Positions 4,465 to 51,895 of a DNA stretch of 64,000 nucleotides are shown here, in pieces. Under the pieces are notes generated by a model. That model was given only the letters and a program-made list of their open reading frames with translations, was not told the DNA's origin and searched no databases. The stretch is from an uncultured Acidobacteriota bacterium (GTDB lineage Bacteria > Acidobacteriota > Vicinamibacteria > Vicinamibacterales > 2-12-FULL-66-21). The translations under genes and the position numbers were made by a program. Where the stretch lies: the NCBI GenBank assembly GCA_963804245.1, contig CAWDPQ010000009.1, forward strand, positions 657,234-721,233. Reading direction: 5' to 3'. Every line of letters begins with the position of its first letter. The stretch's first letter is position 1.

Positions 4465-5973
<1,509 letters not shown>

Positions 5974-13486: not shown

Positions 13487-14701
13487 ATGGACCCGGACCC
13501 CGGCGGTGTCGTGATCGTCGGTGCCGCGCGAACACCGATCGGCCGTTTCGGTGGCGTGTTTCGCACCGTGCACCCGGCGGATCTCGCCGCCGCCGCCACT
13601 CGGGCGGCGCTCGAACGCGCGGCAGTCCCACTCGAGACCGTCGAGGAGGTGCTGATGGGCCATGCCCGCCAGGCGGGATCCGGCCCGAATACCGCGCGGC
13701 AGGTCGTCAAACGGGCCGGTCTTCCCGAGGCGGTGCCCGCGTACACGATCAATAAGGCGTGCGCATCGAGCCTGCAGGCGGTCGCGTCGGGCGCCCAGTC
13801 GATTCTCACTGGCGAATCAGAGATCGTGGTCGCTGGTGGCATGGAGTCGATGAGCCGCGTGCCGTACTTCGTGAACGCCGAGGACGCGCGTTGGGGTCAC
13901 AAGATGGGGCAGTTCGCGCTCATTGATGCGATGTATCGCGACGGATTCACCTGCTCGCTGTGCGGTCTCATCATGGGGGAGACGGCGGAAATACTGGCGC
14001 ACCAGTACGGCATCACGCGTGAGGAGTCCGACGTCTACGCCCTCGAAACGCAACGCCGCACTGCAGCCGCACACGCCGCCGGACGTTTCAATGAAGAAAT
14101 CGTTCCGGTCACGGTCACTGATGCGAAGGGCACGTCGACCGTCGTCTCCGTTGACGAGCATCCGCGGCCGGAGACCACGATTGACAGCCTGCGAAAGCTG
14201 CCGCTGGTGTTCGGCGAGGTTGAGGGACAGACCGGCATCATTACTGCCGGGACGTCGTCGGGGATCACCGACGGCGCCGCGGCCGTGGTCTTGATGTCGG
14301 GACGCAGGGCACGTTCATCCGATGTCCCGGCACGTGCGCGAATCCTCGGCTGGGCAACCGCAGCCGTGAACCCACGCATCATGGGCATTGGACCGGTGCC
14401 GGCGGTCAGGAAACTCTTGTCCCGTCTCAAGCTGACCTTGGACGACTTCGATCTGGTGGAGTTGAACGAGGCCTTCGCGCCCCAGGTGCTGGCCGTTCTC
14501 CGCGACCTGCCCATTCCGCTCGAGAAGTTGAACGTGAACGGCGGCGCAATCGCGCTCGGACATCCGATTGGTGCGACCGGCGCACGCATGCTCGTCACGC
14601 TCCTGCACGAGATGGAAAAACGGAATGTTCGACGCGGCCTGGCGACGCTGTGCGTCAGCGGCGGGCTCGGAATGGCAATGGCGATAGAGCGGAGTCGTTA
14701 G
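13487..14701 (+). CDS. acetyl-CoA C-acetyltransferase (thiolase)
   Basis: Thiolase motifs: NKACASSL (active Cys), NEAFA, NVNGGAIALGHPIGATG and CVSGGLG. 404 aa. Confidence 0.95.
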   Translation: MDPDPGGVVIVGAARTPIGRFGGVFRTVHPADLAAAATRAALERAAVPLETVEEVLMGHARQAGSGPNTARQVVKRAGLPEAVPAYTINKACASSLQAVASGAQSILTGESEIVVAGGMESMSRVPYFVNAEDARWGHKMGQFALIDAMYRDGFTCSLCGLIMGETAEILAHQYGITREESDVYALETQRRTAAAHAAGRFNEEIVPVTVTDAKGTSTVVSVDEHPRPETTIDSLRKLPLVFGEVEGQTGIITAGTSSGITDGAAAVVLMSGRRARSSDVPARARILGWATAAVNPRIMGIGPVPAVRKLLSRLKLTLDDFDLVELNEAFAPQVLAVLRDLPIPLEKLNVNGGAIALGHPIGATGARMLVTLLHEMEKRNVRRGLATLCVSGGLGMAMAIERSR

Positions 14702-14735
14702 TCGACAGTCGTTAGTCGTCGCCAGTCGCAGTCGG
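14693..14735. repeat. degenerate heptamer tandem array (AGTCGNN)
   Basis: AGTCGTT AGTCGAC AGTCGTT AGTCGTC GCC AGTCGC AGTCGG. The thiolase stop TAG (14699-14701) lies inside the array. Confidence 0.85.
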
Positions 14736-14841
14736 GCGCAAGCGGAGAAACAGCCGGGTGGCTCACAGCCTAGCGGAGATGAAAGCGGACAGTCGCAGAT
14801 AGACAGCGGCCCGAGCGACCAAGCGAGGGCTGGCAGGCGAT

Positions 14842-14966
14842 GGGGGTGCCCGCCTCCGCTGGTCGCGGAGAGTGCGGGCGACCAGCTACGGCGAGGTCTC
14901 GCCGTAGCGCGCGTGAACGTTGGCGCGCGGAGGCGGAGGGCCCCAAGCGCACTAATAAATGCAGAC
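14842..14966 (+). repeat. GC-rich structured repeat, family R2, copy a
   Basis: ~120 nt, near-identical to 51747..51865. Nested palindromes: CGCCTCCGC/GCGGAGGCG outer, CTGGTCGC/GCGACCAG, GCTACGGCGA/TCGCCGTAGC. Ends with GGGCCCCAAGCGCACTAATAAATGCAGAC, 25 nt before the next gene. Confidence 0.85.
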
Positions 14967-14990
14967 CAAACGTTTCGAGATATCCGTATT

Positions 14991-16043: not shown

Positions 16044-16060
16044 AGACCATGTCTATGTCA

Positions 16061-16209
16061 AATCCCAACCTCCAATTCCCAACTCCCAAAACGGGATGGC
16101 CGAAGCATTGGTGCTTAGATCGCGAATGCACCCCCCGATCGAACGAATTTCACCCAGATCGTACGTTCGGCTCGGTTGGGAGTTGGGAGTTGGAAATTGG
16201 GAGTTGAGG
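16061..16209. repeat. heptamer-array hairpin element
   Basis: Left arm TCCCAAC CTCCAAT TCCCAAC TCCCAAA (16061-16092) and right arm TTGGGAG TTGGGAG TTGGAAA TTGGGAG TTGAGG (16174-16209) are imperfect reverse complements around an ~80 nt core. It starts 18 nt after the stop of 14991..16043. Confidence 0.8.
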
Positions 16210-17410: not shown

Positions 17411-18259
17411 ATGGAAATCAAGACGGTCGGCGTGCTCGGTTGCGGCTTGATGGGATCGGGCATCGCCCAGGTGTGCGCCGCATCGGGATACAAGACGATC
17501 GTGCGCGAGGTGGATCAGGGCGTGCTCGACAAGGGGCTGAGCCGCCTGCGCAAGTTTCTCAACGACGGAGTCGAAAAAGGCAAGGTCACGCCCGAGACGC
17601 GCGATCAGACGCTCGCCAACCTGTCGGGCACCATCAGCTTCGCCGACCTCGGAAAATGTGACCTCGTTATCGAAGCCATCATCGAGGACGTCGAGGCGAA
17701 GAGCGGGAGCTACTCGGCGCTCGATGCGGTCGTGTCCGACCATACGATCTTCTGCTCGAATACGTCTTCGCTGTGCATCACCGAGCTCGCGGCAAAGACG
17801 AAGCGGCCGGACCGCTTCGCCGGCCTGCACTTCTTCAATCCTGTACCCATCATGAAGCTCGTCGAAGTCATCCGATCGCTCACGACGAGCGATGAGACGT
17901 ATCGAACCGTCTTCGCCTTCGCGCAATCGCTGGGCAAAGACCCAATCACTGCGCCCGACAAGCCCGGGTTCATCGTGAACCGCCTGCTCGTCCCGTATCT
18001 CCTCGATGCCATCCGATCGTTCGAGCATGGCCTCGGTACCGTCGAAGACATCGACAAGGGCATGAAGCTCGGCACGGGCTATCCGATGGGCCCGTTCACT
18101 TTGCTGGACTTCGTCGGTCTCGACACCACGTACTACATCGCCAACATCATGTTCGAGGAGTATCGCGAGCCGGCCTATGCGCCACCGCCTTTGCTCAAGC
18201 GCATGGTGCTCGCTGGACGTCTCGGGAAAAAATCGGGGCAGGGATTTTACAAATACTGA
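17411..18259 (+). CDS. hbd: 3-hydroxybutyryl-CoA dehydrogenase
   Basis: GAGGAGG 5 nt upstream. Rossmann motif GVLGCGLMGSGIA, plus HFFNPVP and GFIVNRLL. 282 aa. Confidence 0.93.
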   Translation: MEIKTVGVLGCGLMGSGIAQVCAASGYKTIVREVDQGVLDKGLSRLRKFLNDGVEKGKVTPETRDQTLANLSGTISFADLGKCDLVIEAIIEDVEAKSGSYSALDAVVSDHTIFCSNTSSLCITELAAKTKRPDRFAGLHFFNPVPIMKLVEVIRSLTTSDETYRTVFAFAQSLGKDPITAPDKPGFIVNRLLVPYLLDAIRSFEHGLGTVEDIDKGMKLGTGYPMGPFTLLDFVGLDTTYYIANIMFEEYREPAYAPPPLLKRMVLAGRLGKKSGQGFYKY

Positions 18260-18365
18260 CTCGGGGCTCGGGGGCTCGGGGGGCTCGGGGCAGCGCCTGC
18301 GGCCCGAGCGAGGCGCGAAGCCGCCGAGCGAGAGCGAGCGGGGGGGCCCCGCGAGCGCTGAGAGA
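18260..18365 (+). repeat. GGGGCTC tandem array + MITE-like core, family R1, copy a
   Basis: The array CTCGGGGCTCGGGGGCTCGGGGGGCTCGGGG starts right after the hbd stop. The core follows: CAGCGCCTGCGGCCCGAGCGAGGCGCGAAGCCGCCGAGCGAGAGCGAGCGGGGGGGCCCCGCGAGCGCTGAGAG. Confidence 0.85.
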
Positions 18366-18381
18366 TGCTCGGACTCCCGCC

Positions 18382-18930
18382 TCAGAGCGGTTTGCGAATC
18401 AAGGTCAGGAACTCACTGCGCGTGCGGGCATCCGTTCTGAATGATCCGAGCATGGCGCTGGTGATGGCAGCCGAGTTCTGCTTCTCCACACCGCGCATCG
18501 ACATGCACAGGTGGGTAGCTTCCATCACGACGCCGACGCCGAGCGGGTCGATTTTCTCGCGGATGGTCTCGGCGATCTGATTGGTCAGCCGTTCCTGCAC
18601 CTGCAGACGTCGCGAGTACATCTCGACCAGCCGCGGAATCTTGCTCAACCCGACCACTTTGTCGCGCGGTATGTAGGCGACGTGGCAGCGGCCGAAGAAC
18701 GGCAGCAGATGGTGCTCGCACAGACTGTAGAAGTCGATGTCTTTGACGATCACCATCTCGGTATAATCGACGGTGAACAGCGCGTTGTTCAGCACCGCAT
18801 CCGGGTCGGCGCCATAACCGCTCGTCAGAAAGCTCAGCGCTTTTTCGACGCGTCTCGGCGTGTTCCGCAGGCCCTCGCGCGATGGATCCTCGCCTAGCGC
18901 CACGAGCAATTGACGAATGATGTCCTGCAT
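18382..18930 (-). CDS. folE: GTP cyclohydrolase I
   Basis: [28 protein letters not shown].., CEHHLLPF, and [15 protein letters not shown]. 182 aa. Confidence 0.95.
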
Positions 18931-19636
18931 CCTGGCATTGTATCTTGCGCTCTCAAGCGTGATTGGACCGGCCGGGCAGACTGCTGATCCGGATGCGCTC
19001 TACGCGCAGCGCGAGGCGCTGTCGAATGCTCGCAAGGCCGGGGAAATCTGGGCGGCGCGAGTCGCCAAGGATCCGCGCGATTTCGCAGCAGCCTGGAAGC
19101 TCGCCCGGACGAAGTACTGGCTCGGTGGGCACGGGCCGCTCGACGAACGCAAGCAGATCCTCGAGGATGGGATTGCCGCTGCGCGAGTTGCCATTGCCGC
19201 CGAACCAAAGCGCCCCGAAGGACATTTCTGGCTGGCGGCGAACATGGGCGAATTGGCCGAGTCGTTCGGGCTCCGGCAGGGACTCAAGTACCGCGGGGAC
19301 ATCAAGGACGCGCTGCTCACCGTGCTGAAGCTGGATCCAGCATTCCAGCAGGGTTCAGCCGACCGCGCCCTCGGTCGCTGGTACTGCAAAGTGCCCGGGC
19401 TCTTCGGCGGTAGCAAAAAGAAGTCGGAGGAGCATCTCCGGCGGTCACTCGAGTTCGACCGGAACAGCACAGCGTCCCTCTATTTTCTCGCGGAGACGCT
19501 GATCGACATGAATCGTCAGGCGGAGGCGAAGACTGAACTGCAGAGGGTGCTGGATGCGCCGCTGAACCCGGACTGGGAGCCCGAGGATCGCGAGTTCAAG
19601 GACAAAGCACAAACCCTGATCGCGAAGTTGAAGTAG
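18917..19636 (+). CDS. TPR-like secreted protein (TatT-like family, tentative)
   Basis: Signal-like N-terminus [17 protein letters not shown]. Helical repeats and ..[28 protein letters not shown].. recall TRAP-associated TatT-type proteins. That family assignment is from memory only. Confidence 0.6.
18937..18942 (-). promoter_or_regulatory. -10 box (TACAAT) 6 nt upstream of folE ATG; candidate leaderless start
   Basis: Minus strand reads TACAAT-gccagg-ATG. The box lies inside the 5' end of the divergent gene 18917..19636. Confidence 0.45.
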
Positions 19637-19649
19637 CCCCCGAGGCCAT

Positions 19650-19736
19650 CTTTCAGCGCTCGCGGGGCCCCACCCCCGCTCGCTCTCGCTCGGCGGCTTC
19701 GCGCCTCGCTCGGGCCGCAGGCGCTGCCCCCGAGCC
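19650..19736 (-). repeat. MITE-like core, family R1, copy b (inverted relative to copy a)
   Basis: The reverse complement is almost identical to 18291-18365 (GGGGGTGGGG versus GGGGGGG). It follows the stop (19736-19738) of the minus-strand gene 19736..20518 in sense orientation via one GCTCGGGG unit. Confidence 0.85.
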
Positions 19737-20518
19737 TATTCAACCGCGGCGGCAATGCAGGTGTGCAGCTGACGTACTCCCTCGGTCAGCGATGCCGGGC
19801 CCGGCTGCAGAATGTACGTGGACTTGATCTCGTGGATCCGTTCAGCCTTGACCGCACTGACGGTTTCCCAACCTTGCCGCTCGACGATCGATTTCTTTTT
19901 CACGCCCTTGCCGCACCACGACGCCACGATCAGTTCCGGATCGCGGGCGACGACGTCGGCCGGGTCAACGATCCGGTGCTTGGCGAGTGACGCGGACCGC
20001 AACTCGGGGAAGATCGGCTGACCGCCGGCAATCTCGATCAATTCATCCACCCAGCAGATGCCCGAGATGATCGGCGCATCCCACTCCTCGAAGAAGACGC
20101 GCGGCCGCCGCGGCAGCTTGGCGGCTGCCGCCCGAATCTCGTTCAGGCCGCTCGACAGTTCCGCGACCAGCGCCTCGGCGCGGTCGATGCGACCAACGAG
20201 TGACCCGACAATGACGATCATCTGGAGGATTTCTGCGACGCTGCGCTGGTTGAACGTCACCACGGTGTAACCTCGCCGAATCAGTTCGGCGGCGATGTCC
20301 GCCTGCAGATCCGAGAACGCGAGGATCAAATCCGGCCGGAGGGCTTCGATCTTGTCGAATCGGGCATTGATGAACGCCGATACACGCGGTTTCCGTCGCG
20401 CCTCGGGCGGGCGAACGGTGTAACCAGAGACACCGACGATGCGATCGCCTTCACCAATCAGGTAGAGCGTTTCGGTGGTTTCCTCCGTGAGGCAGACGAT
20501 TCGCTCCGGAAACCTCAT
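19736..20518 (-). CDS. BtuF/TroA-like (helical-backbone) substrate-binding protein, no obvious signal peptide
   Basis: Start chosen at ATG 20518 (MRFPERIVCLTEETTETLYLIGEGDRIVGVSGY). LRPDLILAFS and PELIVASWCG are typical of cobalamin/siderophore-binding-protein folds. Confidence 0.8.
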   Translation of the reverse strand: MRFPERIVCLTEETTETLYLIGEGDRIVGVSGYTVRPPEARRKPRVSAFINARFDKIEALRPDLILAFSDLQADIAAELIRRGYTVVTFNQRSVAEILQMIVIVGSLVGRIDRAEALVAELSSGLNEIRAAAAKLPRRPRVFFEEWDAPIISGICWVDELIEIAGGQPIFPELRSASLAKHRIVDPADVVARDPELIVASWCGKGVKKKSIVERQGWETVSAVKAERIHEIKSTYILQPGPASLTEGVRQLHTCIAAAVE

Positions 20519-20741
20519 GTGTGGTGAATAGTCTCGCATACGCAACGGACCGGGTGGGAAGCCGTGTGCACTATGTCGCACAGCGAATTGCCGGCACGAA
20601 CATTGATCAAATCAATCACATCGTGGAGAATGCCAGCTATCCCGCAGAACTTCTCTGGTCGCAGCGCCTTTGCCGCTGTACAGCACGCCTTGCGCGGATG
20701 AGCCGCACTGAACGGTGGAGCGCAGCTAAGGGAGATTGCCG

Positions 20742-22364
20742 GTGAACAGGCCGCTTCGGGCCGTGGTCGTGGCGTTCGGCTGCACAGCCATGGTCACTGG
20801 CTCTGTCAACGAGGCAATCGCGCAAACTCTTCGGTTGCCCGGCACCATCGAAGCCGAAGATTTCGATCAAGGCGCTGTTGACGTCGCTTACTCAGATACC
20901 ACTGCTGGAAACACCGGCGGTGCGTACCGCTCGACTAACGTCGACATCGAAACAACCACCGATACCGGCGGCGGCTACAACCTCGGCTGGGTCGCCGCAG
21001 GTGAGTGGTTGAAGTACACCGTCAACGTGACGGCGGCAGGTGCCTACGACTTGGAGATTCGGGTTGCGGCAAGAGGCGCGGGCGGAATCTTCCACATCGA
21101 GATCGACGGCGTCGATCGTACCGGGCCGATCACCATCCCGGAGACTGGCGGCTGGCAGCAGTGGGCCAGCGTCACGAAGCCGGGGTTGAATCTGATCGCT
21201 GGCACACAGGTCTGGCGTGTGGTCATGGACCGGGCTGGCGAGTTTGCTGTTGGCAACATCAACTTCTTCCGCGTGGTCAGCGCCACCCCCGCGCCCGGTC
21301 CCGGCCCCGCTCCGAATCCCGCTCCAGCCCGCAGCCCCGTTCCGAGCCCTGCACCATCGGAACCTCCGGCTGGGGGCGATCCGACCGCGACGGACATCGT
21401 GCTCTATGCGTCCGATGTGACGACCTCGGCCGGCAACTGGGTGCGCGGCAACTATGCAACCGGCGCTGGCGGCCAGGCGATGCAGAGCAACGATGCCGGC
21501 TGGTCGAACGCGAACGAGGCGCTCCCGGCGCCGGCCGACTTCTTCGAGGCCCGGTTCACGCCAGTGGCGAACAAGCCCTACCGCGTCTGGATGCGGCTTC
21601 GCGCCAACGCCGACTCGAAATTCAACGACTCGATCTGGCTGCAGTTCTCCGGCGCGGTCGATGCCGACGGCGCGCCGCTGTGGCGGATTGGAACGCTGAT
21701 CGGCATGCTGGTGAACCTGGAGTCGTGCGCCAATTGCGGCGTCTCTGGCTGGGGTTGGCAAACCGGCGCCTGGTGGGTGCCCCAGGATTCGATCGTGCGT
21801 TTCCCCGCCGCCAGCCTACAGACGCTCCGCGTGCAAACTCGCGAAGACGGCGTCCGAATCGATCAGATTATTCTGAGCCCGACGACCTATCTCGATTCGC
21901 CGCCGGGAACGCCAATCAACGACACGAACATCGTGGCAAAGAGTGGGGGCAAGCCGACCCCGCCGATCCCGCCGAGTCCGCCGACTGCTCCGAGCGGACC
22001 CATCGGACCGAGCGGGCCTGCCGGGACGGGTGCGAATGCGAGACCAACGACGGCGATTACGAGCAACCCGGCCGGCGCACCGCGACGGCCGGCAACCACG
22101 CTCGCTTTCACGGCACCTCCGGATCACGATTCCAGGGTGACGTCATACTCGGTCGCCATCTTCAAAGTCGAGGATTCCACCAAGGCACCCCCGGTCGATA
22201 CCGCCAGTCTCGGAAAGCCGTCGGCAGCACCGAACGGCGAGATTGCGGTGGACATCTCCGGGATTGTCAAGTCGCTCCCGCCGGGATGGTATTACCTCGT
22301 CGTCAGCGCGCACTATACGACGGAGATTGTCCCTAGCTCACCGTCTACGCCCTTTCCGAGGTGA
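20742..22364 (+). CDS. secreted CBM6-type carbohydrate-binding protein
   Basis: GTG start 7 nt after AAGGGAG, then a signal peptide. CBM6-like module LPGTIEAEDFDQG..YNLGWVAAGEWLKYTVNV..GGIFHIEIDG..GGWQQW. Then a Pro-rich linker, a second beta-sandwich-like module and a ~85-aa C-terminal module shared with the next gene. Confidence 0.85.
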   Translation: MNRPLRAVVVAFGCTAMVTGSVNEAIAQTLRLPGTIEAEDFDQGAVDVAYSDTTAGNTGGAYRSTNVDIETTTDTGGGYNLGWVAAGEWLKYTVNVTAAGAYDLEIRVAARGAGGIFHIEIDGVDRTGPITIPETGGWQQWASVTKPGLNLIAGTQVWRVVMDRAGEFAVGNINFFRVVSATPAPGPGPAPNPAPARSPVPSPAPSEPPAGGDPTATDIVLYASDVTTSAGNWVRGNYATGAGGQAMQSNDAGWSNANEALPAPADFFEARFTPVANKPYRVWMRLRANADSKFNDSIWLQFSGAVDADGAPLWRIGTLIGMLVNLESCANCGVSGWGWQTGAWWVPQDSIVRFPAASLQTLRVQTREDGVRIDQIILSPTTYLDSPPGTPINDTNIVAKSGGKPTPPIPPSPPTAPSGPIGPSGPAGTGANARPTTAITSNPAGAPRRPATTLAFTAPPDHDSRVTSYSVAIFKVEDSTKAPPVDTASLGKPSAAPNGEIAVDISGIVKSLPPGWYYLVVSAHYTTEIVPSSPSTPFPR

Positions 22365-22671
22365 TCGCTCGACACCTCCGAATCGAATGGGATCGATCGA
22401 CGATGCGTGATCTGCGGCCACAGCTCACGCCGTACGTCAAACTTTCATAGCAAAAACCCGCGAAGCGCAAAAAATACTGCGTCGTGTGTGCGCGCGCGGC
22501 AACCAAGCGCCCACCTCATCCACAAAACATATCGATAAAATCTGTCTCCTTTCCAGTCGAGCTTGATCTGGCGGTCAATTTGCCCCCGGCTGCCACGGCA
22601 GACCCTGCATTCATCTGGTTTGCGTAAGCGGACCACGCATCTCGTGACCGCGAGAGTCGAGGAGTGTCTAC

Positions 22672-25643
22672 GTGAGGGCATGTGTGTCTCAGAGCCTGGC
22701 AAAAACGTTTCTGTGTGTCGGAGTTCTAGCGTGCGCGGCATCAGCCAGCGCCCAGTCCATATCCCTCCCGGGAACCATACAAGTCGAAGATTTCGATCAA
22801 GGGGCAAGCGGAGTCGCATACTACGACTCGACCGACGGAAATCGCGGTGATCGAGTATCGTGCGACGGATGTTGATATCGAGGCGTGCGACGAGGGCGGT
22901 TTCGACGTCGGTTGGGTTACCGCAGGCGAGTGGTTGAAGTACACGGTCAACGTCTCGCAGACGGGTGTCTACACGTTGGAGTTTCGCGTGTCGTCCAAGG
23001 ACAGGGGAGGGACGTTCCACCTTGAGGTGAACGGCGTGGATCGAACCGGCCCAATCCAGGTTCCCGACACCAATGGGTGGCAAAACTGGACGACGCTTAC
23101 AAAATCCGGGGTCAGCCTCAGTGCCGGCTCGCAGGTCTGGCGACTCGTCTTCGATATAGATACGGCGGAGGCGACCGTCGGGAATTTCAATTATATCCGC
23201 GCTACCGGGCCGGCATCGAGCGGCACGTCGGGCGGTCGTCGGGGCCTTATGGGGGTACGCCGGTTGTGCTTCCCGGTACGGTGCAGGCCGAGGATTTCGA
23301 TAATGGCGGGGAAGGAGTGGCATACCATGACCTTTCCGGCGCGAATCAGGGCGAAGCGTACCGTTCCACCGCCGTAGACGTCCAGCCGAGTGCGGATTCA
23401 GGAGGCGGTTACAACGTCGGCTGGGCGTTCGCGCAGGAGTGGCTCGCCTACACCGTCAACGTGGCAACGGCGGGAACCTACGATATCGAAGTGCGAGTCG
23501 CCTCGAATGGATCGGGAGGTGCCTTTCACATTGAAGTCAACGGCGTCGATCGAACCGGACCGTTCAGCGTGCCAAATACCGGTGGCTGGCAGTCATGGGT
23601 GACGATTCGAAGACGGGGATCGCGCTCTCTGCGGGACAGCAGGTCTTGAAGCTGGTGATGGACTCGGAAGCTCGTCCGGTTGGCGTCGGGAACTTCAACT
23701 ACATACGCGTCGCGGGTGGAACCGGGATCGGCGTGGAGGTGGATCGACGCCGTATACAGGCACCGCCGTGGCCTGCCGGACGGTGCAGTTCGAGGCTTTC
23801 GACAACGGCGGTGAGGGCGTGGCGTTCCACGATCTGTCCACCGAGAACTCGGGCGGTGCTTCCGCACGACGGCGTTGACATCGAACCCACCAGCGATCCG
23901 GCGGCGGCTACAACATCGGCTACGCCTTCGCCAGCGAGTGGCTCGCTACACGGTGAACGTGGGCGCAGCGGGCACCTACGACATCGAAGCTCGCGTGGCG
24001 TCGAATGGAACGGGCGGTACTTCCACATCGAGATCAACGGCGTCGACCGGACGGTCCGCTCTCGTGCCGAACACCGGCGGGTGGCAGACGTGGACACATT
24101 CGGAAGACCGGTTTGAGCTTGAGCGCAGGGCAGCAGGTGTGGCGTCTCGTGATGGACACGAACGGTGCGGGCACTGTAGTCGCCAACTTCAACTTCATTC
24201 GAGTAGCGAGCGCTCGGGAACGTCGAATCAGCCGCCGAACGTCAGTATTACGAGTCCGGCGAATAATGCGTCGTACACGGCTCCGGCGAGCATGACCATC
24301 AACGCCTCAGCGTCCGACGCCGATGGCACGGTCGCGCAAGTGGACTTCTACGCCGCCGCGCAATTCATGAGCAGCGACACCAGTTCGCCCTACAGCGCAA
24401 CCTGGAGCGGCGCGGGAGCGGGCATTTACGCACTGACAGCTGTCGCCCGCGACAATCAGGGCGCCACGCGGACGTCGAGCACCGTCAATGTCACGGTGAC
24501 CGGATCGACCGATGGCGGCGGGGGCGGGACGTGGACGAGCGCCGACGTCGGCAACCCGGACAGCCCTGGCTCGTCGACCACGTCGAGCGGGACGTTCACG
24601 GTGAGCGGAACCGGCGAGGACATCTGGGACACCGCCGACCAGTTCAGGTTCGTATATCAACAGCTGCAGGGTGACGTCGAAGTGATCGCCCGGGTCAACT
24701 CGCTCCAGGGCCCTGACATTTGGTCCAAGGGCGGCGTCATGATTCGTGGAAGCTTGTCCGGCAGCGCGCCGAACATGCTCGTGGCGGCGACGATCGGCAG
24801 CGGCTGGACGTTCCAGCGGCGGCGCGCGGACGGCGACATCAGTTACGGTCCCGGGGCGACCAAGCCGGGACGGCTCCTGGCTGGGTTCGCATCACCAGGC
24901 AGGGTAATCAGCTGAGCGGCTACACATCGACGGACGGCAGCACGTGGACGCTGTTCAACAGCGACACGATTGCCATGCCTTCGACGGTGTATGTCGGTCT
25001 CGCCGTGACGGCCCACAGTCCGACAGGGCAGGCCACCGCGGTCTTCTCGAACGTGACCGCCCGCCCGCTGTCGCCAACGAGCACCCCGCCGCCCACGGTG
25101 TCCCTCACCGGTCCGGCGAACGGAGCCACATACACCGCACCGGCCAACATGTCGATTACCGCGACGGCGTCCGACAGCAACGGTACCGTGTCGCGTGTCG
25201 ACTTCTATGCCGGCGGCACGTTCCTGGGCAGCGACGCCAGCAGCCCGTATAGCTTCAACTGGACCGCCGTGGCCGCCGGGAGCTATTCGCTGACCGCGGT
25301 TGCGGTCGACAATGGCGGCGCCTCCACGACGTCCGGCGCCGTGAACGTCGCGGTGTCGGGAACCGTCTCACATCCGACGACGGTTGTGTTCACGCCGTCT
25401 CCCGATCACACCACGCTCGTGAGCTCCTATTCGGTTGCACTTTACCGTGCCAGCGATCCGGTAACAGCTTCGCCAGTCGCCACGAAGAACCTCGGTAAGC
25501 CGTCACCGGTCAACGGCGAGATCTCCGCGTCCATCACCGACATCGTGACCCCGTTACCTTCCGGCTCGTTCTACGCAGTGGTGACGGCAATCGGTTCGGG
25601 CGGATCGGCCCAGAGCACGCCGTCGCCGCCCTTCACCAACTGA
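22672..25643 (+). pseudogene. multi-domain secreted protein (3x CBM6-like, Ig-like repeats, ConA/LamG-like module, shared C-terminal module) broken by at least 7 frameshifts
   Basis: Homologous sequence continues through ORFs 22672..22875, 22847..23377, 23077..23649, 23595..24116, 24005..24295, 23875..24915 and 24720..25643. GTG start with GAGGAG 7 nt upstream and a signal peptide. Shifts are near 22856, 23235, 23607, several in 23760-24240, and 24856. Confidence 0.8.
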
Positions 25644-25649
25644 GTTGTT

Positions 25650-25675
25650 GGATGGCAGTTGCTATACTGCCATCC
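25650..25675 (+). promoter_or_regulatory. perfect 10-bp hairpin after the stop of the CBM6 gene, carrying a TATACT -10-like box
   Basis: GGATGGCAGT-tgctat-ACTGCCATCC. TATACT (25663-25668) lies 7 nt before ATG 25676. There is no U-tract. Confidence 0.45.
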
Positions 25676-26351
25676 ATGCGGGACTTCTTCACTGGTCGAT
25701 CGCGGGCGCTTCCACTCATCGTGGGAGCGCTCGTGATCGTGTCGGACGGCGCGGCAGCGATGCAGCGCGGTCGTACTACGTCGGCCAAGCCAGCGCCGGC
25801 GACGGCTGCTAAAAAGGAGCCGGCGCAGGTGAAGTGTGCCGAGCTCCTCGGCACCGGTACCAAGACCTCTTCAACCTACTGCTTCGTCCTCGCCGGTCGG
25901 GATCCGGCGGAAGGGGTGATCGTCACGGTCCCGCCACACGCCGGCGAAGCCACGCTCACCTTCGACCTGCACAACCGCCATCTCTATTCGGAAGAAGAGA
26001 TGCGGGCCGGGCGCAGAGTACGCGAAATACACGGCCGTTATCGGCGTGCTGACGATGAAAGGGGAGTTGCTGGAGCGGGGCGCGGTCCAGACCGAGTTCC
26101 GGACAGCGGCTGACTTATACGAACGCATCTCCGGTGGCGCCGGACCTGGTGGGGTGAAGGCCGTCGCGCCGATCGGGCGCGAACAGGTCGTGATTCGCCT
26201 CCCGCAGGGCGTCGCTCAGGTAAGTTTGCTCGGGGAAGTCCTCGAAGCCGTGACCGCCGCCGGCCGCGAGACCGCCGCTCCGGGCCGACCCGTGGCGCTC
26301 GTCAGCAATGTGACGGTCGAATATCGACCCCTGAAGAAAGGAAGAAAGTAG
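25676..26351 (+). CDS. hypothetical secreted protein, frame interrupted near 26010-26040
   Basis: MRDFFTGRSRALPLIVGALVIVS.. (the frame of ORF 25652..26113) continues in the frame of ORF 26046..26351 (..EYAKYTAVIGVLTMKGELL..). The stop TAG lies in a GGAAGAAAG-type array. Confidence 0.5.
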
Positions 26352-26357
26352 AAGGAA

Positions 26358-26453
26358 GAGCGCCTGCGGCCCGAGCGAGGCGCAATGCCGCCGAGCGAGA
26401 GCGCTTGCGGGTGCCCGTCTGCCCGGGCCCCAAGCGCATTGATAAATGCAGAC
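26358..26453 (+). repeat. MITE-like core, family R1, copy c
   Basis: AGCGCCTGCGGCCCGAGCGAGGCGCAATGCCGCCGAGCGAGAGCGCTTGCGGG..GGGCCCCAAGCGCATTGATAAATGCAGAC, preceded by GAAAGGAAGAAAGTAGAAGGAAG. Confidence 0.8.
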
Positions 26454-26470
26454 TGAAAGGTGAAAGAAGC

Positions 26471-27115
26471 CTAGTGTATTCCCTGCCATTTGTGCTGCGA
26501 GACGATCACCTTCATCTCGAGTAGCTCGATCAGTGAGCGGCACCGCGCCAGCAGGCCATCCCGTTCGAGCAGGGCTTGCTTTTCGACGGGTTCGAGCTCG
26601 AGATACTGGGCCAGGGCGTTGACCAGATCCTCGTCGGCCATCGACGGCGGTACCTTGGCGTCGGTGCCCCTGCCTTCCGGCTGCGGCACGAGCAGCGCCT
26701 CGAGCCGGCGACGTTCGACGCGGATGCTGGCCCGTTCGTCGTCGTTCAGATCTTCTGTCATCGTCTCGATCCGCGCCACGCGGTAGCCGCGGCTGTCGTC
26801 ATCGTCCAGCACCCGAAACTTTTCGAGCCCGCGCAGCACGATGTTGTAGCGGCCGTCGGAGAGCGGCTCGGCATGGGTGATGAGTCCCGCACAGCCGACC
26901 GGGTAGACGGCTGGCCGGCCTTCATAGTTCGCTTCCCATCCGGGTCTGAGCAGCACCATGCCGATGATGCGATCGCCCTGCAGCGCCTCCGACACCATCT
27001 GCCGGTATCGCGGTTCGAAGATGTGGAGGGGCAGGAACACGTTGGGGAAGAGCACCACATTCGGGAGTGGAAAGATCGGAATGGCGGAGGGAAGCATGGT
27101 CATCGTGGTGGCCAC
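26471..27115 (-). CDS. LON N-terminal (substrate-binding, PUA-like) domain protein
   Basis: IPIFPLPNVVLFPNVFLPLHIFEPRYRQMV is the classic Lon N-domain opening. There is no ATPase or protease part. 214 aa. Confidence 0.85.
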   Translation of the reverse strand: MATTMTMLPSAIPIFPLPNVVLFPNVFLPLHIFEPRYRQMVSEALQGDRIIGMVLLRPGWEANYEGRPAVYPVGCAGLITHAEPLSDGRYNIVLRGLEKFRVLDDDDSRGYRVARIETMTEDLNDDERASIRVERRRLEALLVPQPEGRGTDAKVPPSMADEDLVNALAQYLELEPVEKQALLERDGLLARCRSLIELLEMKVIVSQHKWQGIH

Positions 27116-27142
27116 CGCGTACGTCTACTGCACGAACACTAC

Positions 27143-28423
27143 TCAGTGTATCGTTCTGGTCTTCTTCTCCATATAGTCCATGAGCACGTACTGACCGAGC
27201 GTGCGCGGCGTCGTGAAATACGCTTTGCCGTGGCAGATTTGCGCAACCTTGCGAACGAAGCTCACGAGGTCGTAGTCCCGCGCCAGCATAAAGGTATTGA
27301 TGAGAATACCCGCCTTGCGGCACGCTGCCACTTCCGCGAACGTTTCCGAGACGATGAATGGATCCAGTCCGAAGGCGTTGCGATAGATGCGGCCGTCGGG
27401 CCGAGTGAGGGCCGACGGCTTGCCATCGGTGATCATGACGATCTGCCGCATGTCTTTCTGCTGGCGCTCCAGGATTCGTCGCGCCAATCGCAGTCCCTCG
27501 CGCGTATTCGTGTAGTACGGCCCGACGCGCACGCGGGCCAGCCGGCTCAACGGAATTTCTTCCGCGGAGTCGTGAAACAGCACGAGCTTGAGCGCGTCTC
27601 CCGGGTATTGCAGGCGGATGAGATTTGCGAGCGCGAGCGCGACTCGTTTGGCCGGCGTGAACCGATCCTCGCCGTACAGAATCATGCTGTGGCTGCAGTC
27701 GAGCATCAGGACCGTGGCGCAGGAGCTCTGGTACTCGCCCTGGACAACCATCAGGTCCTCGTAGTCGACGGCAATACCTCCCTTTCCCGCCATGCCGCCG
27801 CCGCGCAGCACCGCGTTGAGGATGGTGCTGCTCGCGTCGAGGTTCATCGTGTCGCCGAACTCGTACGGCTTCGGCGCACCGCTGGCTTCGATGCCCGTCG
27901 CCATCTCCCGGGTGTCGTGCCGGCCGATGCTGCTCCTCCCGATTGAGCCGAGCAGATCGCGCAGCGCGCGGTAGCCGAGAAAATCGAGGCTCTTGTCCGT
28001 GATTTCGAACCGGTAGGTCGCTTCCGCCCCTCCGGTTCCAGGACCGGGCCGCTCGCGCGCCTGACGTTCGTTCTCGAGATCGGGCGCCCCCGACAGATAG
28101 CCCTGCTGCTGGAGCTTCTCGATGATGCGTTCGATCAACTCATCGATCCGCTCCTCCGCATCGTCGGCATGTTGCCAGTCCTTGCCGAGCAGCTTTTCGA
28201 GCGTCTCCTCAGAGAGCATCCCGCCATTCAAGAGGGCTTCCAGGATTGCATCGTGCAGCGATTGACGCGAGTGACCGCCATGCTCGTCGTCGATCTCGTA
28301 AGGCAGACCGTACGGACTCTCGAAGCCGCTCGACAACAGGAGGTCGGAGATCTTCGAGAGCAGTTCCTCGAGATCCAGACCGTCGAGGTCTTCCGGGCGG
28401 AACTTCGAATAGCGATACCTCAT
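27143..28423 (-). CDS. von Willebrand factor type A (VWA) domain protein
   Basis: MIDAS DxSxS (LDCSHSM) and a later ITDGKPS motif. 426 aa. Same strand as the ATPase upstream. Confidence 0.85.
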
Positions 28424-28440
28424 TCAGCTCCCACGTCTGC

Positions 28441-28611
28441 TTTTATTACTGCGCTTGGGGCCCCACCCCAAGCGCTCTCGCTCGGCGGCTTCGCGCCTCG
28501 TCCTTCGACAAGCTCAGGACGACCCTGAGCTGCGTCGAAGGGTCGCTCGGGCCGCAGGCGCTTCCCCAGTTCCCCAGTTCCCCAGTTCCCCAGTTCCCCA
28601 GTTCCTCAGTT
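28441..28611 (-). repeat. MITE-like core family R1 copy d with nested 45-bp palindromic insertion, plus CCCCAGTT x6 octamer array
   Basis: Core 28441-28562 (GCGCTTGGGGCCCCACCCCAAGCGCTCTCGCTCGGCGGCTTCGCGCCTCG[..insert..]CTCGGGCCGCAGGCGCT). Array 28564-28611. The ATPase stop (28606-28608) lies in the last unit. The element sits between two genes of an apparent operon. Confidence 0.85.
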
Positions 28612-30108
28612 GTAATACTTCTTCTTTTCCCCTCGCATGGGAATCTCACGCTCGGTCAGTGCGTCCGCCGCGGTGCTGCGAGGCCCGCGGCGTGCCGGTT
28701 CCGCGCCCTGATAATGGAACTCGTCCGACCGGCTGATTTTTTTCTGTGCGTAGAGCCCTTCGAGCACGAAATCGACCGCAGCCGCCAGCATCGGCGCGGC
28801 AGCGCGGTCTGCGAGTCCGGCCTGTGCGGCGAGCTCACGCAGGCCCTGCACGTCGCCGGTGCGCTTCAGCAGCTCCGCCGCGGGCAGCGTGTCGTCCACC
28901 TGCAGATTGCCGCCGAGATCGAACCACTCCGTGACCTGGCGAATGTCGGCGTTTGGAAAGTAGCCGGTGAAGACATTGGCGACCGCCGCGCGAATGACGT
29001 CGCGCGCGACGTTGTCGGCGCCGCGCAATTCGCCTTCGTACTCGAGCTCGAACTTTCCGGTGATGGCCGGGAGCGCAGCATAGATATCGGTGATGCGCGG
29101 CACGATGATCGATTCGCCGGCGAGGAGCGCCCGCCGTTCGGCGTTGGAGACGACGTTCTCCAAGAGTGAAATCGGCAGCCGCTGGCTCACGCCGGAGCGT
29201 TTGTCGATCTTCGATTCCTGGCGGGCCTGGAACGCCACCTCCTCGACCGCCTCGCGCACGAACGGCGGCACCTCCACGGTGCCGCGGTCGACCCAGGCTT
29301 CCTGCTCGGTGATCGCCATCGCGTCCTTCCGCGTGGCCGGGTAGTGGGTCCGGATCTCAGAACCGATTCGATCCTTGAGCGGCGTGATGATCTTGCCGCG
29401 AGCCGTGTAGTCCTCGGGGTTGGCGCTGAAGACCATCAGCAGGTCGAGCGGCAGGCGCACCGGGTAGCCCTTAATCTGAACATCCCCTTCCTGCAGGATG
29501 TTGAAGAGACCGACCTGAATCTTGCCGGCAAGGTCGGGCAGCTCGTTGATCGCGAAGATACCGCGATGCGCCCGCGGCAGCAGCCCGTAGTGCATCGTTG
29601 TTTCGTCGGACAGATCGAGCCCGGCCCTGGCTGCCTTGATGGGATCCAAATCGCCGATCATGTCGGCGATGGTCACATCCGGCGTCGCCAGCTTCTCTAC
29701 GTAGCGACCGTCGCGCGAAAGCCACGACACCGCCATCCGATCGCCTTCGGATCGCGCACGCGCGCGACAAACCGCACAGATCGGCGAGACCGGGTCGTCG
29801 TGAATCTCACAACCCGGGACAACGGGCAGCTGTTCGTCGAGCAGCCCGGTCAGCGCTCTGAGCAGCCGGCTTTTTGCCTGGCCGCGCAGGCCGAGCAGGA
29901 TGAAATTGTGACGGGACAGGATGGCGTTGACGACCTGAGGGACAACCGTTTCATCGTAACCGACGATGCCCGGGAAGAGTGGTGTCCCGGACTGCTGGTC
30001 GCGCATCCGCGCTACGAGGTTCTCGCGGATCTCATCTTTCACCGAACGCCGCTTGATCCGTCCCGCTGCGATGGCCTGACGGAGCTCGGCAACGGTGGTA
30101 GGAAGCAT
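28606..30108 (-). CDS. ChlI/BchI-like (Mg-chelatase-type) AAA+ ATPase
   Basis: [16 protein letters not shown], a P-loop variant GLRGQAKS, Walker B-like [10 protein letters not shown], and [33 protein letters not shown] (ChlI-like sensor region). 500 aa. Confidence 0.82.
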
Positions 30109-30146: not shown

Positions 30147-30938
30147 TTGCCGACTTTGCAGAGGCCTCTGGTTTACGCGCACCGCGGCGGGGCGGCGCTC
30201 CGTCCCGAGAACACGATTGCCGCCTTTGATCACGGCTTGTCCTTCGGCGCGGACGGTCTCGAGTTCGATGTGCACCTGTCGCGCGACGGCGCCGTCGTCG
30301 TGCATCACGACGATACGCTCGAACGTACGACCGGCGTATCCGGCCTGGTGGCGGATCATACGGCGGACGAACTGGCGCGGCTCGACGCCGGCTTCACATT
30401 CCAGTCCCGGGAGCCCGGTGGATCAAACGGCTTTCCGTATCGTGGCCTGGGCCTCGGCATCCCGCGCCTTCGCGACGTCCTCTCGCGGTATCCGTCGGCA
30501 CGCTGCATCATCGAGCTGAAGACGAGCGAGCCCGAGCTCGTCCGCCGGACAATCGACGACATTCGGGCCGCATCCGCCGTGGACCGCGTCGCCCTGGGCT
30601 CGTTCTACTGGCGAGCGCTGAACACGGCGAGAGCCTACGAGCCGCGCATTCCCACGGGTGCGTCCAAGGAAGAGACCCGCTGGGCGCTGTATCGATCCTG
30701 GGTGCGCCTGCCGCTGGGGCGGACTGGTTATCGTGAGTTCCAGGTTCCCGAGCACATGGGAGTGAACACGATCGTCACTCCCCGGTTCATCGCCCATGCC
30801 CACCGTTCCGGTCTGCCGGTGAAGATCTGGACGGTCAACGACGAGCGAGACATGCGACGGTTACTCGACTGGGGCGCTGACGCGCTGATCAGCGATCGAC
30901 CGGACCTGGCGGTTGAAGTCGAAGTCGCTAGTCGCTAG
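30147..30938 (+). CDS. glycerophosphodiester phosphodiesterase
   Basis: VYAHRGGAALRPENTIAAF and ..LEFDVHLSRDG.. are GDPD motifs. TTG start. The stop TAG lies inside a GTCGCTA array. Confidence 0.88.
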   Translation: MPTLQRPLVYAHRGGAALRPENTIAAFDHGLSFGADGLEFDVHLSRDGAVVVHHDDTLERTTGVSGLVADHTADELARLDAGFTFQSREPGGSNGFPYRGLGLGIPRLRDVLSRYPSARCIIELKTSEPELVRRTIDDIRAASAVDRVALGSFYWRALNTARAYEPRIPTGASKEETRWALYRSWVRLPLGRTGYREFQVPEHMGVNTIVTPRFIAHAHRSGLPVKIWTVNDERDMRRLLDWGADALISDRPDLAVEVEVASR

Positions 30939-30957
30939 TCGCTAGTCGCGAGTCTCG
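30915..30957. repeat. degenerate heptamer tandem array (GTCGCTA)
   Basis: GAAGTC GAAGTCGCTA GTCGCTA GTCGCTA GTCGCGA GTCTCG, overlapping the last codons and the stop of the GDPD gene. Confidence 0.85.
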
Positions 30958-40965: not shown

Positions 40966-41042
40966 GGGGTCAGATCTTGTTTCTTGCGCGCGTGTCCTCT
41001 TTCTGCGACAGGACACGAGTGCAAGAAACAAGATCTGACCCC
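40966..41042. terminator. 77-nt nested hairpin between convergent lpd and UDG genes
   Basis: GGGGTCAGATCTTGTTTCTTGC pairs perfectly with GCAAGAAACAAGATCTGACCCC. The inner stem is GTGTCCT/AGGACAC. There is no U-tract. Confidence 0.7.
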
Positions 41043-41731: not shown

Positions 41732-41746
41732 CGAAGTTTCCGAATA

Positions 41747-48051: not shown

Positions 48052-48064
48052 AATCACGGCATTC

Positions 48065-51865: not shown

Positions 51866-51895
51866 GATAACTGGGCAAGCAGGAAGCGGAAAGCC

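Follow-up and report, generated by a model that had tools for sequence, protein, structure and literature searches.

R1, a small structured repeat family of Vicinamibacterales found mostly in sense orientation between genes

The window analysed here is a 64,000-nt stretch of contig CAWDPQ010000009.1 (assembly GCA_963804245.1, positions 657,234–721,233 of the forward strand) from an uncultured Acidobacteriota bacterium of the Vicinamibacterales. It contains the gene order thl(+), hbd(+), folE(−), a tetratricopeptide-repeat (TPR)-like gene (+) and btuF(−), and the two convergent spacers that flank the folE–TPR pair hold inverted copies of a short repeat, which we call R1. An earlier note on this DNA had described R1 from the letters alone as six copies of a MITE-like core (a MITE being a miniature inverted-repeat transposable element), locked in orientation to the gene upstream. 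The 19-mer GCGCCTGCGGCCCGAGCGA of R1 occurred five times exactly in the window, against 0.22 occurrences expected, and none of 100 shuffled sequences reached five. A covariance model built from 30 long-form R1 copies of other genomes and run on the window without filters matched the same five copies (a–e), with E values from 6e-17 to 1.6e-8. The window contained in total five full copies and one truncated copy (f), at the six places given in the earlier note, and two more 5'-truncated derivatives (g and h). The sites were thus recovered; their extents were longer than first given, since a conserved tail (...GAGCAnTGAnAAAWGNRGAC) adds about 8 nt at the 3' end. The copies are as follows.

18292–18374, + strand: R1 copy a, short form with a 3-nt deletion in the 3' hairpin loop; 62.3 bits, E = 4.9e-10; carries the exact 19-mer
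19640–19725, − strand: R1 copy b, short form; 76 bits with the covariance model; inverted repeat with copy a
26359–26455, + strand: R1 copy c, short form, its 3' hairpin loop longer by 13 nt; convergent spacer; 66.4 bits
28438–28562, − strand: R1 copy d, between co-directional (−) genes, sense; 54–64 bits with the covariance model
63277–63383, − strand: R1 copy e, long form, 97 nt plus tail; convergent spacer; 99.4 bits, E = 6e-17
60499–60579, − strand: 5'-truncated R1 copy f, 3' hairpin and tail only; model match 60499–60605, borderline at E = 0.07
14841–14968, + strand: R1-derived composite g, co-directional spacer, sense; repeat families D6, D9, D11 and D14; weak model match
51746–51873, + strand: R1-derived composite h, co-directional spacer, sense; weak model match; preceded on its 5' side by an array of AACTGGGG (51705–51741)

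Copy a lies in the spacer between hbd(+), identified by Pfam 3HCDH_N and 3HCDH and ending with a stop codon at 18257–18259, and the convergent folE(−). Copy b lies between the TPR-like gene (+) and the convergent Peripla_BP_2 (BtuF-like) gene (−). The two copies are mutually inverted, and their first 58 nt are 100% identical (inverted repeat I1), in agreement with the earlier description of a near-identical pair bracketing folE and its neighbour. Copy d contains a nested 43-nt palindromic element at 28500–28542, and the gene downstream of it starts at 28423, 19 nt past the R1 core and about 11 nt past the 8-nt conserved tail. Copy f, which is fused directly to a CTCGGGG array (60551–60579), occupies a divergent spacer, where it is sense relative to the (−) gene downstream. 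In composites g and h, the 3' hairpin and tail are those of R1, and the loop holds a foreign palindromic core.

The family was searched for with the 19-mer in one genome per species, which gave at least 111 loci, the 111 listed being those analysed (cited by their L numbers) and the window's own genome not being among them. Full elements were defined in these loci as a match to a 5'-module profile paired with a match to a 3'-module profile, and all family counts below, including fractions of the 92 copies and 45 genomes, refer to copies among the matches listed. At least 92 full copies were present in at least 45 genomes, with two modes of core length, 76 and 97 nt; since 8 more nucleotides of tail are conserved, the R1 units are 84 and 105 nt long, both multiples of 3. 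The hosts of the 19-mer loci were nearly all metagenome-assembled genomes (MAGs) of Vicinamibacterales or 'Acidobacteria gp6', and a few loci were chance matches within coding sequence of other phyla. No description of R1 was found in the full-text literature on Acidobacteria or Vicinamibacter with MITEs or repeats. The family, whose members are small interspersed repeats of the Vicinamibacterales that are G-rich, highly structured and non-autonomous, is thus so far undescribed.

Genes around the copies were called with a self-trained codon-usage model. Between co-directional genes, 42 copies were sense, that is, directed as the flanking genes, and 8 were antisense (84% sense; binomial p = 1.2e-6), and a caller-independent six-frame coding score of the flanks gave 40 sense and 5 antisense copies. 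The strand bias that had been claimed from the window was therefore upheld outside it, and random orientation, the outcome that the earlier note had named as speaking against its claim, was not seen among the copies of the 45 genomes. Pfam backed both flanking genes in six antisense cases (L036, L025, L111, L082, L087 and L095), so the bias is strong, yet not absolute. The window itself scarcely tests orientation, because four of the five copies that had been counted as consistent in polarity (a, b, c and e) lie in convergent spacers, with the 3' end 6–25 nt from the stop codon of the other gene and thus no farther from it than the 5' end is from that of the first gene. Co-directional spacers of the window hold only d, g and h, all three of them sense; of the five copies that the earlier note had counted as sharing one polarity, only d bears on the question, orientation having no unique meaning in a convergent spacer.

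The proposed lock to the upstream gene was not borne out. R1 was distributed over co-directional, convergent and divergent spacers at 50/11/13, against 53/11/10 expected from spacer numbers, and this match to the background indicates that R1 is neither an element of gene 3' ends nor an avoider of promoter regions. The 13 copies in divergent spacers are without any upstream gene end, and the 3' tail adjoins the following start codon as tightly as the 5' end adjoins the stop codon.

At the junctions, the stop codon of the upstream sense gene lay within 60 nt of R1 in 42 of 45 copies and within 5 nt in 13, and in six of the 45 the first bases of R1 complete the stop codon (T/AG, TG/A or TA/A, the slash marking the border). 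In three cases the upstream reading frame passes through R1 and ends in its tail. Among the 40-odd copies for which a downstream start was called, about half had an ATG within 25 nt of the 3' end of the core. The tail ATG was in frame with the downstream gene and its first available start at six loci; it looks like the real start in L003 (upstream of dnaE), L044, L052 and L100, and a later ATG is the likelier start in L084 and L098. R1 also occupied sites within operons, for example between atpG and atpD (L006), and sites immediately before dnaE, dnaJ, fabD and a putative nuoF.

About 5% of the copies were intragenic. All five of these are sense and in frame 3, in uvrC and in genes for a fadB-like dehydrogenase, a ppsA-like enzyme, a radical-SAM enzyme and a PSD1-domain protein, where they encode the hydrophilic peptide RLRPERGA(E/K)SPSESERGWGPAS within a host frame that is continuous and scores as coding on both sides. 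Sense frame 2 is closed by the R1 tail, and frame 3 is open. Across all copies, antisense frames were open in 80–85 of 91 and sense frames in only 27–56 of 91; since antisense frames are nearly always open, avoidance of stop codons is not the reason for the sense bias. All five intragenic copies are preceded by GAAG/GGAG-type sequence, and the three bases 5' of R1 were 74–81% purine in the family, with C at only 7–8% at positions −3 and −2. The idea that R1 targets Shine-Dalgarno (SD) sequences was rejected, as the 3' end of copies in divergent spacers is not consistently near a start codon.

The linker of the fadB-like protein between WGFGWELGPFE and NAGASLVDLGDGV (L195, L215 and L252) ranged from 47 to 97 aa among orthologues, and in several genomes it contained peptides like in-frame translations of other palindromic repeats, e.g. 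GSDLGQTGVKPGSDEGQT and FGESTEALAEVEG, so that in-frame capture of repeats seems common in this clade. A comparison of 80 orthologues for an empty site of the in-frame R1 yielded none, the linker being hypervariable and its boundaries not fixable.

The short-form consensus reads AGCGCCTGCGGCCCGAGCGAG-GCGCGAAGYCGC-CGAGCGAGAGCGAGCGGGGGTGGGGCCCCGCGAGCAnTGAnAAAWGNRGAC. Its 5' end is a 21-nt module, AGCGCCTGCGGCCCGAGCGAG, which is almost invariant, and pairing does not account for this invariance. The centre is a covarying long-range stem, to which the long form adds a 21-nt inner hairpin; a spacer, GAGCGAGAGCG, joins the central stem to the 3' hairpin (GCGnnGGGG-GTGGGG-CCCCnnCGC), and the A-rich tail AnTGAnAAAWGNRGAC follows. 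The long-range stem, the inner hairpin of the long form and the 3' hairpin are the supported parts of the structure. In the alignment, 97.9% of cells were paired, compared with 88.8% in shuffles and 35–58% when partners were slid, and compensatory changes occurred in 18 of 25 pairs (131 cells); these figures are somewhat inflated because the alignment was fitted to the model, and an alignment made with MAFFT gave like covariation. Each pair of a predicted 3-bp hairpin at the 5' end was identical in 86–88 of about 90 copies, and covariation scarcely tests it. Searches of Rfam gave no match to the window at the gathering score and none at E values up to 1 over 18200–19800, and the consensus, 84 or 105 nt long, carries neither a GTAG nor a CGTC tag at either end.

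Several features distinguish the two strands. C(GNA)G caps 27 of 39 inner loops of the long form, and the loop of the short form is mostly CGAAGY. GNA triloops closed by C-G, of the d(GCGAAGC) type, are exceptionally stable DNA minihairpins, so that a mechanism by way of single-stranded DNA stays in play. In the supported stems, G.U occurred 25 times and A.C 12 times (p = 0.047, from cells that are not independent events). Of the two RNAs, that of the sense strand was the more stable in 64 of 79 copies, as expected from a sense strand rich in G and poor in T (44% G, 8% T). We infer that the strand under structural constraint is the sense strand, as RNA or as single-stranded DNA.

R1 is a mosaic. 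Its building blocks are the 5' module, the 3' hairpin and a central hairpin that may or may not include the 21-nt inner hairpin; their combinations vary, and foreign palindromes are inserted at defined points (in copy d; in L046 and L089; in L030, L078 and L042). The palindrome nested in copy d, CCTTCGAC..GCTCAGGG...CCTGAGC..GTCGAAGG, stands at a fixed point after GAGCGA; the same point is occupied by an equivalent palindrome in L046 (about 5200–5250) and by a partial one in L089 (about 2672–2700), and a related palindrome stands alone in a spacer of L136 (about 4795–4850). Truncated forms at either end and nested forms exist, and 17 orphan 3' modules were found among the listed loci. R1 is mostly single (at least 80 copies), tandem forms being limited to L055, with three 66-nt units, and a few adjacent pairs (L005, L068 and L101). 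The units of L055 (7005–7202) are head-to-tail variants without the 3' hairpin and lie directly upstream of a fabD-like start, an arrangement like that of a variable-number tandem locus of mycobacterial interspersed repetitive units (MIRUs).

To place the copies a and b, we compared 80 orthologous loci of the TPR-like gene (L112–L191), whose proteins share 52–69% amino-acid identity. R1 was present at the a and b sites in none of the 80, including genomes that carry R1 elsewhere, and its density was 1–2 copies in about 650 kb of these loci, compared with five full and three partial copies in the 64-kb window. R1 copies of other genomes are 88–96% identical to copy a, well above the retention expected of synonymous sites at 52–69% protein identity, which argues for mobility, the R1-bearing and the orthologous loci of this comparison being different sets. 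In three soil metagenome runs (X1–X3), word depth reached about 1,700–1,970 over copy b (19647–19753), against about 5 in the flanks, and about 90–500 over copy a (18256–18362), where the bin covers only part of the element. At both copies, Logan contigs of the soil DNA runs end at the R1 borders, and none has a joint that leaves the element out; R1 ranks among the main causes of broken assemblies in this lineage. The lineage-specific sites, the uneven copy number and the nested, truncated and tandem forms indicate a multiplying repeat and not a conserved regulatory site.

The copies a and b also coincide with a rearrangement. Synteny by tblastn revealed the order btuF(+), folE(−), TPR(+), hbd(−), thl(−) in most of the 80 relatives, relative to which the window carries one further feature:

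18382–19636: inverted segment of folE and the TPR-like gene (tblastn synteny)

Its breakpoints are the two spacers with a and b. Breakpoints at inverted copies identical over 58 nt point to R1 copies as recombination substrates, and the arrangement suggests that the segment was either inverted by recombination between R1 copies or received its second copy and its inversion in one replicative event.

The signatures of classical transposition were looked for at the 92 copies. No target-site duplication of fixed length was found; direct repeats of at least 10 nt flanked 9 of the 92, compared with about 1% in shuffled pairings, and ranged from 10 to about 80 nt. They were of two kinds, namely array units on both sides of R1 (L025, L083, L013, L015 and copy b of the window) and a duplicated 3' end of the upstream gene (L006 and L065). 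The terminal inverted repeat described in the earlier note as imperfect is present as a weak resemblance (about 10 of 14 positions in a and b, 7–8 of 11 in the family consensus), and the termini are unpaired in the structure supported by covariation. The label 'MITE-like' is therefore not supported. In L006 (1733–1962), R1 has the terminal 63 nt of atpG on either side; the two versions differ at 12 positions, all of them synonymous, so that both must have evolved as coding sequence, and R1 probably arrived with a foreign gene end and not by duplication of its target. In L065 (384–700), a thiolase 3' end, spacer and R1 occur twice in tandem, and the distal R1 is degenerate. The two cases suggest that R1 was imported together with a foreign gene end. 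The 19-mer was absent from viral contigs, which gives no sign of carriage by phages. An origin as an integron attC site was rejected, since the consensus has neither GTT nor AAC, the core sites thus being missing, and the flanks are housekeeping genes on both strands.

A role as a terminator, proposed in the earlier note among functions at the RNA level, is not supported. Within 18000–30000, a scan of both strands found no R1 hairpin that leads into a U-tract; on the sense strand the tail is rich in A, and on the antisense strand the hairpins are not followed by a run of T. Copies moreover lie inside operons (atpG–atpD) and in frame in uvrC and other genes. A soil metatranscriptome contig of 198 nt (X24) covers 28343–28540 with two differences, so that the 3' portion of copy d and the beginning of the gene downstream stand on one contig, which is consistent with co-transcription of the two.

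Short tandem arrays accompany some of the copies. Tandem Repeats Finder (TRF) called 18 arrays with a period of 7–8 nt in the non-coding 15% of the window and a single one in the coding 85%. The array loci that begin within 30 nt of a stop codon number 12 or 13, of which 12 begin within 17 nt, and several overlap it; only four of the stop-proximal arrays adjoin a full R1 (a, c, d and e), one more lies at h, and the array of f is far from any stop codon. The arrays beside R1 and the repeat around copy b are as follows.

18260–18290 (TRF 18263–18290), + strand: array at copy a, CTCGGGG/G, about 3.4 units, directly after the hbd stop codon
26333–26358, + strand: array at copy c, GAAGAAAG-like, overlapping the stop codon at 26349–26351 (TRF)
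28563–28611, − strand: array at copy d, AACTGGGG, 6 units, TRF score 93
63384–63410, − strand: array at copy e, CTAGGAG-like, overlapping the stop codon of the (−) gene 63387–63854 (TRF)
51705–51741, + strand: array at h, AACTGGGG, directly after a stop codon
19637–19647 and 19726–19736: direct repeat around copy b, CCCCCGAGGCC and its partner GCCCCCGAGCC, with the unit of the copy-a array (read from the sequence)

The first unit of the copy-d array contains the stop codon of the ChlI-like ATPase gene (28606–28608). An array had been said always to lie between the stop codon and the R1 end; this holds for a, c, d and e and not for b, where about one unit is present (GGCTCGGGGGC) and TRF calls no array. 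That the array belongs to the element could not be sustained, since only four of about 13 stop-proximal array loci adjoin a full R1 and spacers of relatives have arrays without R1. Among the 80 orthologous spacers that follow the TPR-like gene, arrays are present in many genomes, each with its own unit, often beginning at the stop codon; the unit often resembles the last codons of the gene, and hairpins of inverted arrays are many. An array with its inverted complement, that is, a hairpin of tandem units, occupies four spacers of the window (16059–16206, 48891–48962, 50455–50550 and 61682–61784). The arrays are therefore a separate feature of gene ends in this clade, resembling the short tandemly repeated repetitive (STRR) sequences of cyanobacteria, and not part of R1.

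Further arrays at or near stop codons of the window lie at 14693–14719, 30923–30954, 43512–43539 and 52670–52714, and like features were seen in the loci L129, L135, L146, L168, L185, L121 and L122. Units differ among genomes at orthologous sites and recur within a genome; in the window, AGTCGYT occurs three times, AACTGGGG twice and an AGCTGGA-type unit twice. Arrays were found 5' of R1 in 21 of the 92 copies and 3' in 2. One unit recurs at different R1 copies of the same genome, namely GCTCGGGG at a, b and f and AACTGGGG at d and h, and other genomes have AAGGGAA, GGCAGGTAGGG or GGTTGGA as recurring units beside R1. Either R1 lands preferentially in purine- and G-rich arrays, or a unit of its 5' flank is taken along when it is copied. 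Formation of G-quadruplexes by the arrays was considered and rejected, as a G-quadruplex motif fits only 8 of the 92 R1 5' flanks.

The STRR sequences of filamentous cyanobacteria are intergenic tandem repeats of about 7 bp that can form hairpins; they are without known function, and roles in transcript stability or translational coupling have been proposed (PMC2670836). The arrays, though not the R1 core, share the period of about 7 bp, the intergenic position and the capacity for hairpins; they differ in occurring in Acidobacteriota, in starting at or overlapping stop codons, in often being paired with an inverted array of locus-specific units and in being neighbours or landing sites of R1. 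The unit AACTGGGG is the reverse complement of CCCCAGTT, and in this form it resembles CCCCAGT, which we take to be the unit of STRR1. No report of stop-codon arrays of this kind was found for Acidobacteriota.

The explanation that we favour, with a probability of about 0.55, is that R1 is a selfish non-autonomous element comparable to repetitive extragenic palindromic (REP) sequences, Rickettsia palindromic elements (RPEs) and MIRUs, which is kept only, or mainly inserted, in sense orientation. Such an element would multiply and move, in keeping with lineage-specific sites and a very uneven copy number, and would persist almost only when read within a sense transcript, either as the filling between one gene's stop codon and the start codon that follows or in frame in a permissive protein linker. 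The sense bias would result from a strand-specific constraint, the sense RNA or the single-stranded coding strand being the strand that folds, and sense frame 3 is the only frame both found translated and hydrophilic. Strand-specific insertion of single-stranded DNA beside purine-rich sequence may contribute, as in systems of REP sequences with REP-associated tyrosine transposases (RAYTs) or in IS200/IS605. R1 lies in the tandem arrays or at their edge. The earlier note had read the bias as function at the RNA level (3' UTR, terminator or stabiliser) or very specific insertion; the bias (42:8) was confirmed, the asymmetry of G.U pairs and loops points to the sense strand as the folded one, the terminator is not supported, and R1 may serve as a 3'-UTR element or stabiliser.

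Several points weigh against this explanation. No pair of 5' and 3' modules at a distance of 0.45–6 kb encloses a gene in the 111 loci, so that no autonomous partner was found, and no mobilising enzyme was found around R1 in the loci examined. Neither the soil runs nor the fadB-like orthologues gave a clean pair of filled and empty alleles. A selected host function would account equally well for the strong conservation of R1 across species-level genomes, above all for that of its unpaired 5' module, and the recurrence of one unit beside several R1 copies of a genome is unexplained if the arrays are independent. The excess of G.U is only marginally significant and comes from non-independent cells; X24 is the only informative RNA contig, is without strand or end information and may represent DNA carry-over. 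Gene calls came from a home-made caller and were checked with Pfam for a subset only, and ascertainment by an exact 19-mer under-samples diverged copies, in MAG contigs that tend to break at repeats.

Two alternatives are serious, and neither is mutually exclusive with the selfish-element account. The first, which we consider rather unlikely, is that R1 is a cis-acting RNA module of the host, whose sense multi-hairpin, set in intercistronic and untranslated regions, would shield the upstream cistron from 3' exonucleases, define processing sites, or uncouple and re-initiate translation by means of its stop codons and tail motif, with selection keeping orientation and sequence. It would account for the 42:8 bias, for a covarying structure with excess G.U and GNA loops on the sense strand, for conservation across 45 genomes and for a placement exactly between stop and start that extends to operons (atpG–atpD) and to sites before dnaE, dnaJ, fabD and the putative nuoF; the conserved tail TGAnAAAWG, an ATG/SD-like motif, in many cases contains the start codon or lies right beside it. 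Such roles have been ascribed to REP elements and to STRR hairpins (PMC3184786, PMC2670836). R1 positions, however, are not kept between genomes, some genomes have many copies per 64 kb and others almost none, divergent spacers are occupied at the background rate, and insertion occurs in frame within housekeeping genes; 8 of 50 informative copies are antisense, six of these backed by Pfam, there is no Rfam relative, and truncated, nested and tandem forms exist. Unstable positions, uneven numbers, truncated and nested forms and antisense copies are typical of selfish repeats and less so of dedicated regulators.

The second alternative places the origin of the bias in insertion itself: R1 would be moved as single-stranded DNA by an HUH/Y1 transposase, in the manner of REP–RAYT, IS200/IS605 or PATE-like elements, to the 3' side of a purine-rich, SD-like target on the coding strand. 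We regard this as improbable, even though the absence of a pairing terminal inverted repeat and of a fixed target-site duplication, the hairpins near both ends and the C(GNA)G loops all fit it. The purine-rich 5' flank, poor in pyrimidines, fits it too, as do the GAAG/GGAG-type sequences before five of five intragenic copies, whose uniform sense direction stop avoidance cannot explain given the open antisense frames; canonical GTAG-tagged REPs also co-exist in the window. No tnpA or RAYT gene was found adjoining R1 or between R1 ends in the loci examined, a search made with no RAYT query sequence. The 5' flank shows a compositional preference and no defined tetra- or pentanucleotide, the 3' end is not consistently near a start codon in divergent spacers, and R1 lacks the GTAG/CGTC tag of the REP superfamilies.

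A broader version, which we likewise hold doubtful, would take R1 and the stop-anchored arrays together as traces of an unrecognised, transcription-strand-specific insertion of DNA or exchange between lineages in Acidobacteriota. The insertion could be of single-stranded DNA or templated by RNA, at purine-rich, SD-like sites of the coding strand, and the element may carry along a flank unit and sometimes a recoded end of the upstream gene, the products later being co-opted as intercistronic RNA structures.

The remaining explanations have little left to recommend them. A classical MITE, derived by deletion from a DDE insertion sequence, with the arrays as footprints of insertion or excision, would match R1 in size and copy number, in the likeness of one end to the reverse complement of the other (a and b match at about 10 of 14 positions) and in the array units that sometimes lie on both sides (L025, L083, L013, L015 and copy b). 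It is largely refuted already by the target-site duplication result, flanking repeats of at least 10 nt being limited to 9 of 92 copies, variable between 10 and about 80 nt and made of array units or gene ends. The unpaired termini, the like arrays at many stop codons without R1 and in inverted pairs, and a strong bias relative to transcription that DDE transposition would not give also stand against it, and we consider it very improbable. Hardly better is spread through an RNA intermediate by target-primed reverse transcription, as for short interspersed elements (SINEs). The A-rich tail, the sense bias, the 5'-truncated f, g and h with the 17 orphan 3' modules, and the flanking duplications of variable length in about 10% of copies would suit it; 3'-truncated forms exist too, though, most copies are without flanking duplication, the longest duplication (L006) differs only synonymously and so points to imported DNA and not to duplication in place, and no reverse transcriptase is linked to R1. 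To our knowledge, such SINE-like spread has no precedent in bacteria.

The least credible explanation is that orientation is set by replication, through insertion into the lagging-strand template for which IS200/IS605-type elements show a bias, with a gene link that is only apparent, genes and replication sharing their direction. In the window the cumulative GC skew shows a monotonic rise, yet R1 stands on the + strand at a and c and on the − strand at b, d, e and f, in each case in the local gene direction, so that orientation follows transcription and not replication, and 84% sense is above any plausible gene-strand bias.

Among known repeats, REPs and bacterial interspersed mosaic elements (BIMEs) occur in enterobacteria and pseudomonads. 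REPs are 21–65 bp long and intercistronic, can stabilise upstream mRNA and serve as recombination substrates (PMC3184786). R1 resembles REPs, BIMEs and REPINs as a small, G+C-rich, intercistronic hairpin repeat of high copy number that acts as a putative recombination substrate and lacks the terminal inverted repeat and target-site duplication signature, and it resembles BIMEs in that its modules combine with other palindromes (g, h and the nested copy d). It is two to three times longer than a REP, is without the GTAG/CGTC tag, shows no preference for convergent spacers and is frequently in frame in genes, and no RAYT gene has so far been linked to it in the loci examined without a RAYT query. 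RPEs of Rickettsia are palindromic repeats of about 100–150 bp that are intergenic or in frame within unrelated housekeeping genes, where they encode a conserved peptide (PMC10969869). R1 is like them, always in one frame, in the uvrC, fadB-like, ppsA-like, radical-SAM and PSD1 genes; the likeness is one of description between different phyla (the sequences were not compared), about 5% of R1 copies are intragenic as against nearly half in some RPE families, and R1 has a quantified sense bias in intergenic spacers.

MIRUs are units of 40–100 bp in intergenic regions of operons, with G-C-rich internal inverted repeats and imperfect terminal repeats, and their ends overlap the flanking stop and start codons (PMC3184786). 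Some R1 copies likewise overlap the upstream stop codon and supply or abut the downstream ATG, the lengths are multiples of 3 and L055 has a tandem form; in contrast to MIRUs, R1 is mostly single at each locus, has no continuous small frame from stop to start and is not as a rule flanked by direct repeats. ERIC and Correia/NEMIS elements are MITEs whose effects on transcripts depend on orientation. With them R1 shares a non-autonomous nature, a size of about 100–150 bp, probable co-transcription with flanking genes and folding in RNA. These elements have clear terminal inverted repeats and fixed target-site duplications, e.g. TA for Correia, both of which R1 lacks. As R1 has the defining features neither of a DDE-type MITE nor of a REP, an intrinsic terminator or an attC site, we file it among the small non-autonomous palindromic repeats.

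The window contains other repeats. A GTAG-type REP family, separate from R1, lies in spacers beside gene ends at 2329–2362, 41741–41774, about 41800–41830 and 48026–48056, each with GCCCGSCCTNNAGGSCGGGC followed by CTAC. A near-perfect 33-nt inverted repeat (94% complementary, 11-nt loop) fills the convergent spacer at 40966–41042 and is unrelated to R1 or the arrays. The region 20763–26045 contains several internally repeated modules of about 500 nt (families D1, D3 and D4), and long coding-like stretches without an intact open reading frame at 22365–23265, 23650–24291 and 25181–26045 may be frameshifted or decaying copies of a repeated gene for a carbohydrate-binding-type domain, or sequencing errors.

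Vicinamibacterales are among the most abundant soil bacteria and are genetically almost unstudied. In soil metagenomes, R1 k-mers reach hundreds of times the depth of their flanks, with consequences in the form of broken assemblies, spurious reading frames and rearrangements. The presence of STRR-like arrays outside cyanobacteria suggests that a phenomenon thought to be specific to one clade may be more general. With 84% of copies sense, insertions in frame and no transposon signature, R1 offers a tractable case of whether the orientation of a small repeat is set by insertion or by action in the transcript.

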